A DNA stretch of 63,629 nucleotides, counting the filler, from Candidatus Tectimicrobiota bacterium (GTDB lineage Bacteria; JACPSX01): NCBI GenBank assembly GCA_016193065.1. It is 7 parts of 7 records of this genome, joined end to end, with 100 filler letters (N's around TTAATTAATTAA, not from the genome) between each part and the next. Parts side by side here need not be neighbours in the genome. Positions count along the whole stretch, not along the records: positions 1 to 16,034 come from JACPSX010000164.1; 6 more parts are not named here. The stretch is one strand, 5' to 3'. The notes beneath the pieces were generated by a model. The model had not been told where the DNA came from. It did no database searches and worked only from the letters and a program-made list of their open reading frames with translations. A program made the position numbers and the translations under genes. Shown piece by piece: positions 11,602-58,528 of this stretch (position 1 is the first letter of the stretch; each line of letters begins with the position of its first letter).

Positions 11602-11674
11602 AGCACTCAGCTCTCAGCTTAAAACTCGGAGGAGAATCAAGAGTTTCACCTCTCTGAAGCTGACATCTGAGAGC
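11602..11674. repeat. 73-bp heptamer-flanked element copy 1
   Basis: (TCAGCNN)n arm, CTCGGAGGAGAATCAAGA core, (GCTGANN)n arm; inverted homolog at 14423-14495. Confidence 0.8.
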
Positions 11675-11756: not shown

Positions 11757-12086
11757 ATGTCCGAAAAAATGGTGACTCTTAACGATAGCAATTTTGAGGG
11801 TGAAGTGCTTTGCAGCGAGATCCCGGTCCTCGTGGACTTCTGGGCCGAATGGTGCGGGCCTTGCCGCATGATTGCACCGGCAGTGGAACAACTGGCTGAA
11901 GAATACGCCGGACGGCTCAAGGTGGGCAAGCTCAATGTGGATGAAAACCCTCTAGTCGCTTCGCGCTTCGGGATCCGCAGCATCCCGAGCCTGCTCATTT
12001 TCAAGGGGGGTGTTGTGGTGGAACAGATCGTCGGGGTCCAGCCGAAAGCCTCCCTCAAGCAACTCGTAGAGAGAAACCTGTCCTGA
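11757..12086 (+). CDS. trxA: Thioredoxin
   Basis: [13 protein letters not shown] cis-Pro motif, 109 aa. Confidence 0.97.
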
Positions 12087-12090
12087 GCTT

Positions 12091-12176
12091 CCGTTCGCCT
12101 GGTTCGACAAGCTCACCACAGGCTTCGACCGCGGGTACCCGCGAAGCGGGTGCGGCTTCCGGGTGAGGGCGAACGG
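12091..12176. repeat. REP-like hairpin cluster carrying a nested double micro-element (12130-12165)
   Basis: CCGTTCGCC...GGCGAACGG ends; one empty unit TTCGAC-AAGCTC-A and one filled unit TTCGAC-[element]-A. Confidence 0.85.
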
Positions 12177-12216
12177 AGGTCGAAGGGCCTGTAGCGGGAA
12201 TGCTCCGGGGGGACAC

Positions 12217-26690: not shown

Positions 26691-28049
26691 ATGATCAGTC
26701 TTCGAAAGATTCTGGCGTTTGTCGGAATTCTTGTCGTCGTCGCTGCCGCCGTTTTTGCGTATTTCGACTACAAGCAGGGGATCTGGTTCTTCAAACCCAA
26801 GGGGCTCCCCCTGTTGCAAACAGCGCGTGCCGCCGAGGATCTGATCCCCGCGAGCCCCGTCTTCTATCTTTCCGTGCGCGATGGGGCCGGCCTTTGGCAG
26901 AAAGTCAAAACCTCCAACTTCTATCAGAGGGTCAGTGGTGCGGCGAGTAAGACTCCCCGGAAAAGCTCGGGGAGCGCACCCTGGTCCCAGCCCGTGCAGC
27001 AACTGGAACAAAATCTCGGTCTCAAGCTCGACGAGCAGAATCTTCTGAAGCTGTTCGGCAAGAAGGTGGTCCTGGCTTTTTACGGTGTGGGCGAGAAAAC
27101 CGGAGTCGACGGCCTGCTCATCACCGAGACGGACATGTCCCCGAAGGTTTGGGAGTTCTTTGTCCGCCTCAAAGGGAAGTACGGTAAGGACCCCATGGCT
27201 CCCCAGGCCGTTCCCTACAAGGGAGTGGAGATTTTTTCCTTCCGGAGGCCGGTCACCCGGGAGCCGGGTACCCGGCGCCAGGAGGCAGGGTTTTATGCCT
27301 TCGTCGGTAAGTATTTGTTCGCCTCCTCCCGAATGGAGCGCCTGAAAGGAGCCATTGACCTGGCATTGGGAGCGCCCCCAGCCAAGTCCTTCGGCCCCAA
27401 GGTCAAGAAGGCCGCCGATGACCTTGATAAGAATCCGTTCCTGGTTTTCGTCGGTGACAGCTCCAGGGCCTTGGAGTGGGTCCAGAGCGCCATCCCGCCA
27501 GCCCAGCGCCAGGTCTTCCAGGCTGGCGTTTTGCAGAGGTTTAAGGCGTTCGGGCAGGTGACCTTGACGGCTTCCGCGCAGAAGGGCCTCCTCGTCAAAT
27601 CCCGCCTTGAGTTCGACCCGGGGCAACTGGCCCCCGAGCAGGCGAAGCGCTTTGTCCAGCCTCCTGCCACCTACCGGTCCCTTGCTTTCGTTCCCGAGGA
27701 TGCCATTGCTTACGGGGCGGACAACAGTTTTGATCCCCGGACACCCGCAGGGCGGGTACCCGGGGGCCGCAGCCGTACGGCTTCCGAGGCGGACACCCGC
27801 AAGGCGGACACCCGCAAGGCGGACACCCGCAAGGCGGGTACCCGGCAAGCTGCAACTTCCGAGAAGTTGCGATTCTCTCTGGAAAAGGAACTGGGAGTCA
27901 GCATCGAGCGCGATCTGATCCCTCTGGCGGGAAAGGAATGGGCTTATGCCTTGCTGCCGCCGGATGCCGGGAGTTCGTTCCCGGTCCCCCAGCTCCTGGT
28001 GATCCTGCAGATCAAAGATCGGGCCAAGGTGGATCGTTTTCTCCGGGGG
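26691..28049 (+). CDS. Membrane-anchored periplasmic protein (DUF3352-like), 3' truncated
   Basis: N-terminal TM anchor, YKGVEI, ERDLIP.AGKE.A patterns; carries three micro-element insertions. Confidence 0.65.
27254..27274 (-). mobile_element. 21-bp micro-element in CDS
   Basis: CACCC-GGGAGCC-GGGTACCCG on the + strand. Confidence 0.8.
27742..27762 (-). mobile_element. 21-bp micro-element in CDS
   Basis: CACCC-GCAGGGC-GGGTACCCG on the + strand. Confidence 0.85.
27787..27844 (-). repeat. 21-bp micro-element (27824-27844) with 15-bp tandem expansion
   Basis: (AGGCGGACACCCGCA)x3 then AGGCGGGTACCCG; encodes ADTRK x3. Confidence 0.9.
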
Positions 28050-35867: not shown

Positions 35868-35973
35868 CCGTTCAGCCTTCGACCGGGTACCCGGCTTCCG
35901 GGTGAGGCCGAACGGGACGGGTATTGAAATCACTTGGTAGTTGACCGTTCGTGGTGAGCCTGTCGAACCACGA
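35868..35973. repeat. Two REP-like hairpins; the first carries a micro-element at 35884-35904
   Basis: CCGTTC..CCTTCGAC[CGGGTACCCGGCTTCCGGGTG]AGGCCGAACGG, then an empty copy CCGTTCGTGGTGAGCCTGTCGAACCACGAA. Confidence 0.85.
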
Positions 35974-36028
35974 AAAAGACTTTTTCAGCAGCTCGCTAGG
36001 GTTCTGAAGTCCGACCCAGGGAGGAGCC

Positions 36029-44814: not shown

Positions 44815-46434
44815 TTACGGGGCCCCGCCTGATCCGCACCCACTTCGTGGGTACCCGCGCTTTGCGGGTGTCCCGTAGCCGCCCCCTCCCGGGGTAGAAA
44901 TCGAGATTCGATCTCCCCTGGCGGTGCAAAAGGTCACTTTGCCGGGCAGGGGCTCCACTCTTCCTTCCCGGGTGAGAAGATTCTCCCCGGGTTTCCCGGG
45001 ATACCCCCCCTGAAGTCCATAGGGGGCAAACTTCCTGCGTTCCGAGAGAATGGACACTGTGGCCGGCGTCAAACACTCTATTTCCCGGATGATTCCGTCC
45101 CCGCCTCTCCGGCTCCCGGCCCCTCCGGACCCCCTCCGTAATCCGTACCGGAGCACCCGCAAGGGAAACGACAATTCCAAGGCTTCCACCGGAGTATTCA
45201 TGGTATTCGTCATATGGGTGTGAACCCCATCCAGCCCGTCTCGATCCGGGCGGGCCCCCATTCCCCCAGCGATGGTCTCATAGTAGGTAAAAGGCTCTCC
45301 TGTCTGCGGGTCCACCCCTCCCACGACCAGGCTGCTCATGCTTCCGCAACTGGCGGCCGGTATGCGCTCCGCTATAGCCTGGGCCAGAGCCCCCAAAAGA
45401 ACATCCACAATCCGCTGGGAAGTTTCGGTATTACCGGCTCCCACGGCAGCCGGGTAGACCGCGTTGACGACCGACCCCCGGGGAGCCCGGATTTCGATCG
45501 GAGACAGGACACCTGAGTTACTCGGTAGACGTGGATCACTTAATGAACGAAAGACGTAGAAAACTGCTGCCACCGTGACCGCCAATACCGCATTGACCGG
45601 CCCCTGACACTGGGGATCAGAGCCCGTGAAATCGACCGCGGCCTTCTCACCAGCAATGGTGATCTGGACGGCGATTCGAACGGGCTCCTCGGAAATCCCG
45701 TCATCGTCCAAATAATCAGTAAAGGAGTAAACCCCGTCCGGAATCTCCCGGATCATGGCCCGGGTCATCCGTCCCGAATACTCGAGCAGAGAAACCATCG
45801 CCTCGCAGGTCAGCTCGACCCCTTCTTTACGGAGGAGTTCCGACAGCCGGCGTTGCCCGGTGTAATTCGCGGCCACCTGCGCCATCAAATCCCCCCGGCG
45901 CTCCTCCGGAGTCCGCACGTTGGCCAGGATCAGGCGCAGGAGATGCTCATCGACCTCCCCTGCGCGGCAGATCCGCAGGGGGGGCAACCGCAGCCCTTCC
46001 TGAAAGATTTCCCGGGCTGTGGACAGCGATCCGGGAGCCATGCCTCCCACATCAGCGTGATGGGCCCGGTTCGCGACAAACCCGACCAGCCGGTCTGCGG
46101 CGGCCGAAAAGACCGGAGCCACCAGGGTTAGATCGGGGAGATGGGTGCCGCCGCGGTACGGATCGTTGAGCAGGACCATGTCCCCTGGTTCCCACGCGGG
46201 CATGGACTCCAGCGCGCTTTGTACGGACATCGGCATAGAACCCAGGTGCACGGGGAGATGGGAGGCCTGCTCCACCATGCGCCCCTGGGAGTCGAACAGG
46301 GCGCAAGAATAATCCCGCCGCTCCTTTATATTCGGGGAAAACGCGCTGCGGCACAGGGCTACCCCCATCTCCTCAGCAATAGCGCTGAAGCGGTGCCGAA
46401 AAATTTCCAGCCTGACGGGATCCATTCTCTCCAA
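44815..46434 (-). CDS. Hydantoinase B / 5-oxoprolinase family subunit
   Basis: SPNIKERRDYSCA, NDPYRGGTHLPD, HHADVGG, NTPVEALE, TPGGGGYG. Confidence 0.93.
   Translation of the reverse strand: MERMDPVRLEIFRHRFSAIAEEMGVALCRSAFSPNIKERRDYSCALFDSQGRMVEQASHLPVHLGSMPMSVQSALESMPAWEPGDMVLLNDPYRGGTHLPDLTLVAPVFSAAADRLVGFVANRAHHADVGGMAPGSLSTAREIFQEGLRLPPLRICRAGEVDEHLLRLILANVRTPEERRGDLMAQVAANYTGQRRLSELLRKEGVELTCEAMVSLLEYSGRMTRAMIREIPDGVYSFTDYLDDDGISEEPVRIAVQITIAGEKAAVDFTGSDPQCQGPVNAVLAVTVAAVFYVFRSLSDPRLPSNSGVLSPIEIRAPRGSVVNAVYPAAVGAGNTETSQRIVDVLLGALAQAIAERIPAASCGSMSSLVVGGVDPQTGEPFTYYETIAGGMGARPDRDGLDGVHTHMTNTMNTPVEALELSFPLRVLRYGLRRGSGGAGSRRGGDGIIREIECLTPATVSILSERRKFAPYGLQGGYPGKPGENLLTREGRVEPLPGKVTFCTARGDRISISTPGGGGYGTPAKRGYPRSGCGSGGAP
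44835..44870. mobile_element. Nested double micro-element in the hydantoinase B 3' end
   Basis: CG[CACCCACTTCGTGGGTACCCG]CGCTTTGCGGGTG. Confidence 0.85.
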
Positions 46435-48725: not shown

Positions 48726-49000
48726 GCCTGCGGGGGCAACCCCTCGGAGGAGAGAGCACCAAGGGGACTGTCCTTCCTGCCCTGAGCGCAACTGCCGGGA
48801 GCAGCGCAACACCCGCAAAGCGGGTACCCGCACCGGGAGCGGCCAGGGATGGGAAACCGCGCAGCTAGACTTGCTGGCAGATAGCTGAAAACTTATCGTG
48901 GCGGTAGCGGAGGGCTCCGGGTACCCGTCCTGGGTGTGGGCGCCCCGAGAAGGGTCGCTGCGGGAGGCGTGGAGCGAAGGGCAGGAAAACAGTCCCTTTG
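48726..49000 (+). repeat. Structured intergenic element copy 2 (candidate ncRNA or MITE)
   Basis: Homologous to 1149-1411; closing stem 48760-48783/48978-49000; micro-elements at 48810-48830 and 48918-48936. Confidence 0.8.
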
Positions 49001-49082
49001 CTATGGATTCGCCAAAACTGGGGGTGGGCAAGGATAGCTGACCGCTGAAAGCTGAATGCTCTCTTCAATGACCGCTCTCCTC

Positions 49083-58419: not shown

Positions 58420-58490
58420 GAGCCATCAGCGATCAGCTTTCAGCAATCAGATCTCCCGATCCCTCTCCCCCCCGAGACTGTGTCATAAAT

Positions 58491-58523
58491 CCGTTCATGG
58501 TTCGACAGGCTCACCACGAACGG
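58491..58523. repeat. REP-like hairpin, empty copy
   Basis: CCGTTCATGGTTCGACAGGCTCACCACGAACGG at the contig end. Confidence 0.8.
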
Positions 58524-58528
58524 ACAAG

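Follow-up and report, generated by a model that had tools for sequence, protein, structure and literature searches.

The REP hairpin at positions 12091–12176 of the analyzed DNA carries in its loop a 21-nt element, here called E21, in whose center lies a second copy of the same element. We propose, with a probability of roughly 0.7, that the loop of this REP was hit twice by E21, a tiny non-autonomous hairpin element, and that the filled REPs stayed mobile within their carriers. The REP occurs in this genome in three states with exact 21-for-6 junctions, E21 is present in a lineage-specific manner and rose in copy number in a burst, and genes have gained it in frame. All positions refer to the window, the whole stretch of 63,629 nt, which consists of seven contigs joined by N linkers. 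The underlying assembly comprises 2.9 Mb in 294 contigs with 59.6% G+C, and the locus belongs to contig C118. Because of the 86% completeness of the genome and its fragmentation at repeats, the copy numbers given below are lower bounds.

Architecture of the Locus

The following features of the window are used throughout.

11757–12086 (+): thioredoxin gene (open reading frame; Pfam PF00085, 109 bits)
12077–12081 (+): CCTGT, left copy of the 5-bp direct repeat bordering the lineage-specific insertion
12082–12192 (+): insertion relative to the sister species G001, 111 bp, i.e., 106 bp plus the second CCTGT (12188–12192)
12082–12090 (+): left half of the outer shell, CCTGAGCTT, resembling an inverted REP-B core
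12084–12086 (+): stop codon TGA of the thioredoxin gene, contributed by the inserted composite
12091–12176 (+): REP hairpin, an 86-nt member of the CCGTTC...GAACGG set
12091–12099 and 12167–12176 (+): REP stems, CCGTTCGCC and GGGCGAACGG
12100–12122 (+): 23-nt REP-A-type core insert TGGTTCGACAAGCTCACCACAGG, containing TTCGACAAGCTCA (12103–12115)
12124–12129 (+): TTCGAC, left part of the REP loop, preceded by a single C; E21 starts immediately 3' of it
12130–12165 (+): outer E21, split into CG (12130–12131) and CGGCTTCCGGGTG (12153–12165), with GGTACC replaced
12132–12152 (+): inner E21, CGGGTACCCGCGAAGCGGGTG, with the hairpin ACCCGC-GAA-GCGGGT
12179–12187 (+): right half of the outer shell, GTCGAAGGG, resembling an inverted REP-B core
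35868–35915 (+): single-fill REP, 48 nt, with the E21 copy CGGGTACCCGGCTTCCGGGTG at 35884–35904 after TTCGAC and before A
35955–35967 (minus strand) and 58501–58513: TTCGACAGGCTCA
44835–44870 (+): inverted nest in unique DNA (contig C123:3604), 36 nt, composed of CG, reverse-complemented E21 and CGCTTTGCGGGTG
58491–58523 (+): empty REP-A, 33 nt, at a contig end

The copy at 12082–12192 is a five-layer nest of shell, REP stem, REP-A-type 23-mer, outer E21 and inner E21. The shell halves were assigned by comparison with the reverse complement of 33-nt REP-B copies and with a 24-nt unit, CCTGTCCTGAGC-NNN-GTCGAAGGG, that is found in REP-A loops. Apart from the replaced hexamer, the outer E21 equals the intact single fill at 35884–35904: when GGTACC of the latter is swapped for the 21-mer at 12132–12152, the 36 nt of 12130–12165 are obtained with 0 mismatches. 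A single A lies between the end of CGGCTTCCGGGTG at 12165 and the right stem GGGCGAACGG. The 23-nt insert TGGTTCGACAAGCTCACCACAGG is missing from the five canonical 63-nt doubles, which read CCGTTCNCCC-TTCGAC directly.

The strings quoted in the initial annotation were found where it had placed them, namely, TTCGACAAGCTCA at 12103–12115, TTCGACAGGCTCA at 35955–35967 (minus strand) and 58501–58513, and the element at 35884–35904. Its reading of an "AAGCTC variant" near 12103 as a separate empty REP had to be given up; the string belongs to the 23-nt REP-core-like insert at 12100–12122 in the left stem region of the same composite. Nesting as such was confirmed, and its extent turned out to have been underestimated, with five nested layers at this locus and E21 also present in genes and in other phyla.

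A search of the window against Rfam returned only one tRNA and no match at 12091–12176. The DNA fold of 12077–12192 has an energy of −27.9 kcal/mol with z = −1.74; thus, the composite shows no exceptional structure. The single fill at 35868–35915 has as its partner a degenerate, inverted REP-A (about 35945–35974), and the unit of roughly 140 bp that holds it is missing at the orthologous site of G001.

The motif matches were also compared with shuffled sequences. For TTCGACARGCTCA three matches were found versus 0.24 expected, and at least three occurred in 1 of 100 shuffles. With up to one mismatch CGGGTACCCG was found 16 times (2.24 expected), and with up to two mismatches CGGCTTCCGGGTGA was found 7 times (1.13 expected); none of 100 shuffles scored as high in either case. 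A chance origin of these matches is excluded.

Empty, Single and Double REPs in the Genome

In order to classify REPs genome-wide a strict frame, CCGTTC-N4-TTCGAC-N(11–41)-GAACGG, was used. It yielded 58 matches, while the backwards control gave 0. Empty REPs account for 43 of the 58 frames (37 of 33 nt and 6 of 34 nt), single-filled REPs of 48 nt for 8 and double-filled REPs of 63 nt for 5. The remaining two are one frame of 57 nt, in which a 24-nt REP-core unit lies inside a REP-A loop, and one of 60 nt. Empty, single and double REPs have identical frames and differ only by one exchange of 6 nt for 21 nt and then a second one; each fill step brings 21 nt in and takes 6 out, a net gain of 15. 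The initial annotation had proposed a three-stage series together with a genome-wide classification of the copies as empty, single or nested. This classification was carried out and gave three classes of discrete length, 33–34, 48 and 63 nt (43, 8 and 5 frames).

The loops of the single fills are only GCTTC or GTTTC, point variants aside. The exact direct nest, CG + E21 + CGGYTTCCGGGTG, was found seven times by the strict pattern, and an eighth copy is truncated where its contig starts. In the seven the GGTACC of the outer element is replaced without a mismatch, exactly as first described. All eight direct nests lie in REP loops, carry the inner loop CGAAG and have different far flanks. Because the inner loop is the same at all eight loci, the doubly filled REP arose once and later spread with its REP carrier. 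The claim that the REP kept spreading after it had been filled agrees with these data: the eight doubles share the CGAAG loop, lie between different flanks and have no counterpart in G001. Each filled state essentially arose once and was multiplied along with the REP carrier.

As a single historical event, with all inner loops CGAAG, the direct nest counts as one data point for the proposed 6-bp replacement rule. E21's GGTACC is replaced by a direct copy at the 8 loci described and by an inverted copy at 7 more loci in seven different contexts, and orthologous comparison shows gains of +15 three times and of +30 and +45 once each. The inverted nest is a 36-mer of CG, inverted E21 and CGCTTTGCGGGTG; one of the seven lies in the window (44835–44870).

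The carriers of the doubles are of at least three kinds, one of them MITE-like. The MITE-like carrier has terminal inverted repeats, GAGACTGTGTC/GACACAGTCTC, and encloses a REP-B, a spacer of about 30 nt and an inverted REP-A. It occurs with empty, single and double REP-B (window 58462–58528, C277:7740–7930, C139, C172).

A second tiny nesting element is present in both species. This is the 24-nt unit CCTGTCCTGAGC-NNN-GTCGAAGGG, which equals the REP-B core plus ACAGG, enters the REP-A loop beside CCTGT/ACAGG and also forms head-to-tail arrays (C98:89–145, C35:10790–10930 and C291:9419 in this genome; C229:2942–2998 in G001).

The E21 Element

E21 has the sequence CGGGT/ACCCGS-NNN-SCGGGT/G and folds into a stem of 7 bp capped by a triloop. 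The stem is preceded by 5 nt that repeat the element's 3' arm, which gives rise to the palindrome CGGGTACCCG. The exact pattern CGGGTACCCG-N5-CGGGTG was found 99 times in this genome (backwards control 0) and 8 times in G001; 29 other genomes contained none. E21 thus underwent a burst in this genome (99 exact copies versus 8 in G001). A relaxed pattern gave 187 copies. Among 143 cores, stem pair 5 is G-C in 100, A-T in 25 and G-T in 11 and is formed in 136, and stem pair 6 is C-G in 93, G-C in 28 and T-A in 7 and is formed in 129. The 7-bp stem is thus maintained by compensatory changes. Stop codons were found in only 2 of 270 reading frames of distinct E21 cores. When coding-like regions were defined crudely by GC3, a criterion under which 88.5% of the genome qualifies, 105 of the 187 copies fell into open frames of this kind, with all six frames represented.

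E21 inserts without target duplication and favors the position after TTCGAC and the GGTACC center, in either orientation. Of the 99 exact copies 18 start right after TTCGAC, with the loops GCTTC (10), GTTTC (5), CCTTG (2) and CTTTG (1). This position was hit more than once, since three copies there have loops other than those of the single fills (CCTTG twice, CTTTG once). The loops of the other 74 exact copies are diverse (CCTTG 18, CTTTG 10, CCTGG 10, CAGAG 8). Neither a transposase nor a terminal inverted repeat or target duplication attributable to E21 was found.

A pure 15-nt hairpin insertion was considered in place of the 21-for-6 exchange and rejected: by inspection it requires 3–5 extra substitutions at the REP and E21 junctions versus 0 for the exchange. 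A plain insertion of 15 nt is compatible with one tandem double, which lies in a 24-nt unit (C72:3246). A KpnI-like restriction explanation was also dismissed; GGTACC has 616 sites, 259 of them within GGGTACCC, with an observed/expected ratio of 1.17, and is not depleted outside E21. A different hexamer, CAGCTG, is strongly avoided genome-wide, with 120 sites observed versus 707 expected from a maximal-order Markov model (ratio 0.17), which suggests a PvuII-type restriction system.

Some adjacent E21 copies are arranged in tandem rather than nested, with remainders of 15–17 nt. Tandem arrays of the E21 hairpin unit with a period of 15–16 nt occur at 27790–27844 of the window and at C15:11965–12045, C29:3577–3628 and C249:3062–3100; an example is three units of GGACACCCGCAAGGC followed by GGGTACCCG.

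Another repeat of about 250 nt, structured-looking and intergenic (...ctgccgggagcagcg...gggagcggccagggatgggaaaccgcgcag...), lies at about 1180–1430 and 48770–49030 of the window and on many other contigs. It has more than 15 copies genome-wide, bears old E21-like hairpins and is found between unrelated genes (MazG/DUF1844; hydantoinase/LytB). No Rfam family matched it at the gathering threshold.

Support for the Nested Form in Public Contigs

The nested form could in principle be an artefact of a fragmented metagenome assembly, with two repeat copies merged or wrongly connected, and the initial annotation had named such a misassembly as the finding that would speak against it. Many REPs do lie at the ends of the 294 contigs. 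We therefore examined Logan contigs of four public groundwater runs from one study which contain the locus; one of the runs may be the source sample. Left-flank contigs run without a difference from the thioredoxin gene to 12152 (X1), 12142 (X2) and 12141 (X3) and take in the left junction and the inner element. Right-flank contigs in the four runs start at 12148, 12148, 12144 and 12148 and begin with GGGTG+CGGCTTCC, a start that is impossible from a single fill. Among the contigs of these runs none spans the whole composite 12091–12176, which leaves the artefact some room; yet a 43-nt piece covering 12126–12168 crosses both nested junctions with 0 differences at a depth of about 180 (X2), and the nested 36-mer occurs at 8 loci whose flanks differ. 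Both nested junctions are supported, and an assembly artefact is hardly credible.

Orthologous Sites in the Sister Species

In the species-level genome collection (GTDB) the whole phylum consists of this genome (G000) and G001, which belong to one genus. The two are only about 80% identical, so the boundaries of orthologous sites are uncertain by 1–2 nt. At the locus G001 has adjacent thioredoxin and hydrolase genes with the sequence AACCTGT/AGCGGG, and the flanks abut at about 11615–11619 of its contig C95. CCTGT is present once in G001 and twice, at both insertion ends, in G000. The insertion fell on the thioredoxin stop codon, which reads CTG TAG in G001 versus CTG TCC TGA in G000. By sequence comparison the 12091–12176 composite probably arrived after the split from G001; as the phylum comprises two genomes, this direction of gain versus loss is read from these two.

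G001 contains empty REPs, one single-fill REP and the 57-nt form, a double in 0 of 5 frames and the loop CGAAG in 0 of 8 E21 copies. The presence of empty and single REPs without a double gives the order empty, single, double. No REP was found in G001 at the four double loci that could be placed (12091–12176, C277, C142 and C230); the C230 double lies within a 1.1-kb stretch specific to G000. The C139 double had no match in G001, and the doubles on C3, C98 and C172 were outside the comparison. Filling in situ, i.e., an empty or single REP in G001 opposite a double in G000, was looked for and not found, there being no REP at the four placed double loci.

The comparison was extended to 37 E21 copies on ten contigs. 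Both flanks were placed on one G001 locus for 13 copies; three of these 13 placements are paralogous repeat copies, and nine sites, including the 12091–12176 locus, were kept. E21 is missing from G001 at all nine. In-frame gains relative to G001 were seen in GlnE (PF03710), at a first site with +15 nt and at a second with +30, where 36 nt (CG + inverted E21 + CGCTTTGCGGGTG) stand for GGGAGA. Thymidylate kinase (PF02223) has likewise gained 15 nt in frame, and beside a CarD/TRCF domain (PF02559) 51 nt replace GAGGCG, an in-frame gain of 45. The gain at C99:1458 is +15 nt, the G001 target being GGGGTACCGG. Two intergenic sites gained about 14 and 46 nt, which are not multiples of 15, in alignments that are doubtful, and one of the nine sites resisted alignment. 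That the gains in genes are multiples of three could be due in part to selection.

E21 Outside the Genus

The bare 21-nt pattern was discarded as a measure of prevalence; it matched at least 107 stretches, mostly as single matches in GC-rich genomes. Among the 108 matches listed from one-genome-per-species contigs, 53 have a complementary sixth pair, for which about a quarter are estimated by chance, and CGAAG is the commonest loop (11) of those with a complementary sixth pair. Five E21-bearing genomes from the listed matches contain 1–5 copies each and 14 in total, all of them perfect hairpins (backwards control 0). Of 121 genomes sampled evenly from the phylum to which one of the five, a Gemmatimonadaceae genome, belongs, four have 1–5 E21 copies. 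E21 is not private to this lineage, as copies of the 21-mer turn up sporadically in other phyla.

E21 lies inside genes in two small genomes, where the surrounding 2-kb stretches have a G+C content of only 35–39%. The hosts in the low-GC genomes are a TsaE homologue, a phosphoglucomutase-family protein and a PolyA_pol/CCA-adding-family protein; the phosphoglucomutase-family protein is 5 residues longer at E21 than its best solved homologue. In the Saccharibacteria PolyA_pol-family gene (L287:1060–1110) a second GC-rich hairpin (...ctgctgtcgcagacagcag...) lies directly downstream of E21 in AT-rich coding surroundings and may represent another kind of mini-insertion.

In the Gemmatimonadaceae genome E21 occupies the loop of another REP family. 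This family, CATTCCGAGC...GAGGAATC, has 163 matches, with either a 5-nt loop or one of many GC hairpins of 17–23 nt with GNA triloops, E21 among them. The filling of REP loops by mini-hairpins may be widespread.

A scan of metagenomes for REP fills returned 20 loci. Of these, 4 hold a genuine single fill and represent 2 distinct loci, the other 16 match by chance within coding sequence, and none is a double fill. Viral contigs gave 18 stretches on 17 contigs, each with one match and 10 with a complementary pair, and thus no sign of a phage link.

Proposed Mechanism and Alternative Explanations

According to our proposal each E21 insertion would remove 6 bp of target and add 21, a net gain of 15. 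A first E21 would have replaced AAGCTC/AGGCTC after TTCGAC in the REP loop, and a second one GGTACC at the center of the palindrome of the first copy. The filled REP would have remained mobile within larger REP/MITE carriers, by which each state was carried to new loci. The thioredoxin copy would then have come already doubly filled, wrapped in further REP-derived layers, onto the stop codon. We infer that E21 is moved in trans by a hairpin-recognizing enzyme, probably as single-stranded DNA, and that hairpin loops and small palindromes are its preferred targets. We know of no transposition chemistry that replaces 6 bp.

The same exchange might come about with no dedicated mobility at all, through ectopic short-patch gene conversion or replication template switching with hairpins and palindromes as break or stall sites. 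A copied 21-nt patch would replace target bases without duplication, hairpin loops and a palindrome center are the targets seen, tandem arrays of 15–16-nt period and chimeric REP forms such as GACAGGCCTGTC occur, and no enzyme has been linked to E21. We nevertheless rate this explanation lower and consider it unlikely, because the gene targets (GGGAGA, GAGGCG and others) have no evident homology to the E21 flanks that could serve for priming and because the gain is a constant 21-for-6 exchange instead of a patch of variable length. It also fits poorly with the finding of this 21-mer in distant phyla and in genomes of low G+C content that have no donor array. Still further from the data is the idea of a motif under selection for its function, in which E21 would bind a protein, act as a terminator or RNA-stabilizing hairpin or be an extraordinarily stable GNA-loop mini-hairpin, and would recur by point mutation instead of being a copied element. 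The compensatory changes in the stem, the dominance of GAA, GCA and GGA triloops in other phyla and the location just behind a stop codon, a place at which REP hairpins are commonly held to influence transcripts, would agree with such a role. But orthologous sites differ by clean length gains of 15–45 nt and not by substitutions, 105 of 187 copies fall in coding-like frames and occupy all six of them, and the 16 fixed bases are identical in unrelated contexts, which makes recurrent point mutation very improbable.

If the insertion of a mobile E21 into REP loops is taken as the working explanation, a broader one may be added with considerable reserve: E21 could be an unrecognized pan-bacterial micro-insertion, a 21-nt hairpin written by horizontally traveling machinery, for example, a hairpin-specific single-strand recombinase or a templated patch-insertion enzyme. 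It would exchange 6 bp for 21 in loops and palindromes, its own center among them, and about 100 copies in this genome would be the trace of a burst.

The genome contains a multi-copy Y1 (IS200-like/RAYT-like, HUH) transposase gene, at C67:1–900, at C67:26299–27119 and at both ends of C207, which is flanked by GGGGACACC inverted repeats and GGAATTCC repeats. The gene at C67:157–792, the only intact Y1 gene in the genome, scores 62.8 bits on NF047646 and is below the cut-off of 80. Its GGGGACACC flanks fit the GGGGWSAS "TIRtron" motif described in PMC3733652. In G001 only a fragment with an internal TGA stop was found. Y1 genes are present in 3 of 5 other E21-bearing genomes versus 6 of 14 control genomes. 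A link between E21 and Y1 was considered and dropped; the Y1 flanks contain neither REP nor E21, GGGGACACC is not enriched, and no connection is drawn.

Comparison with Known Small Repeats

The closest analogues of E21 in behavior are the SDR elements of Nostocaceae. SDR1–8 are said to have been described by Elhai et al. in 2008 (Genome Res 18:1484) as dispersed elements of 21–27 nt, with one element nested in another. SDR and E21 are alike in being very small, dispersed and apparently mobile hairpin repeats that insert at the center of a short palindrome; E21 shows the features of this type, namely, a 21-nt unit, a compensated hairpin, insertion in a specific short palindrome and nesting. According to PMC5861425 and PMC4390886, SDR5 inserts precisely between nucleotides 3 and 4 of HIP1 without loss, and SDRs are reported only in Nostocaceae. 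In contrast, E21 replaces its 6-bp palindrome where SDR5 splits HIP1, a comparison made by description and not by sequence. Its net gain of 15 keeps genes in frame, and its lineage is a groundwater phylum of two known species plus sporadic occurrences in other phyla.

The host hairpin resembles REP/BIME/REPIN repeats in being a 33-nt imperfect palindrome of high copy number (58 strict frames) and in often forming inverted doublets about 62 nt apart. At least 12 REP-A/REP-B pairs of such REPIN-like type are in opposite orientation with starts 52–64 nt, mostly 62–63 nt, apart. To our knowledge a stepwise series of self-nested fills has not been described for REPs. PMC3733652 gives a GTAG or CGTC tetranucleotide tag at one end as a criterion for REP/REPIN and states that REPs are known targets of other elements, can supply stop codons and can sit inside genes. 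The REPs studied here differ from RAYT-mobilized REPs, as by inspection no GTAG/CGTC tag is present on the 33-nt consensus copies and as they have no cognate RAYT, the Y1 flanks being GGGGACACC and not these REPs.

In-frame insertion in genes is shared with the Rickettsia palindromic elements (RPE), which PMC10969869 and PMC3733652 describe as palindromic repeats in frame in unrelated housekeeping genes. RPE measure about 100–150 bp and encode a conserved peptide, whereas E21 has 21 nt, adds 5 residues and is read in six frames. For fungal mitochondria Paquin et al. reportedly described double-hairpin elements in 2000. Such elements and GC clusters appear in PMC4478555 as GC-rich hairpins in AT-rich DNA that are sporadic, merge and reshuffle into larger composites and occasionally lie within genes. 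The fungal GC clusters are organellar and of 18–48 nt or more; E21 differs by removing 6 bp without duplication. Nor is E21 a MITE, a class with terminal inverted repeats, target-site duplication and a length of 70–300 bp, since it has 21 nt, makes no duplication and costs the target 6 bp; the REP carriers do look MITE-like with their inverted repeat GAGACTGTGTC/GACACAGTCTC.

These comparisons draw on PMC3116915, PMC5861425, PMC2884548, PMC4390886, PMC10969869, PMC3733652 and PMC4478555, and for REPs also on PMC2817692. In the literature consulted on small dispersed repeats, in-frame palindromic elements, double-hairpin elements and GC-rich hairpin insertions no 21-nt bacterial element is described that replaces 6 bp, nests in itself and inserts in frame; the paper defining the SDRs may bear on the newness of the rule.

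Significance

It has long been asked how repeats that are too short to code for anything get around, be they REPs, cyanobacterial SDRs or mitochondrial GC clusters. The genome studied here is an unusually clean record of such movement, with three successive states of one host hairpin, base-exact junctions and a fixed 21-for-6 exchange, self-nesting in both orientations and empty sites in G001. Dated insertions that preserve the reading frame are also present in GlnE, thymidylate kinase and a TRCF-domain gene. Owing to the constant net gain of 15, E21 can colonize coding sequence without frameshift and would be a source of 5-residue loop insertions in proteins. The occurrence of the same 21-mer in distant phyla hints at a shared insertion machinery, which, if there is one, could be sought by phylogenetic profiling. 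Should E21 indeed be pan-bacterial, it would silently add five residues to essential proteins in this phylum, in Gemmatimonadota and in small low-GC genomes.
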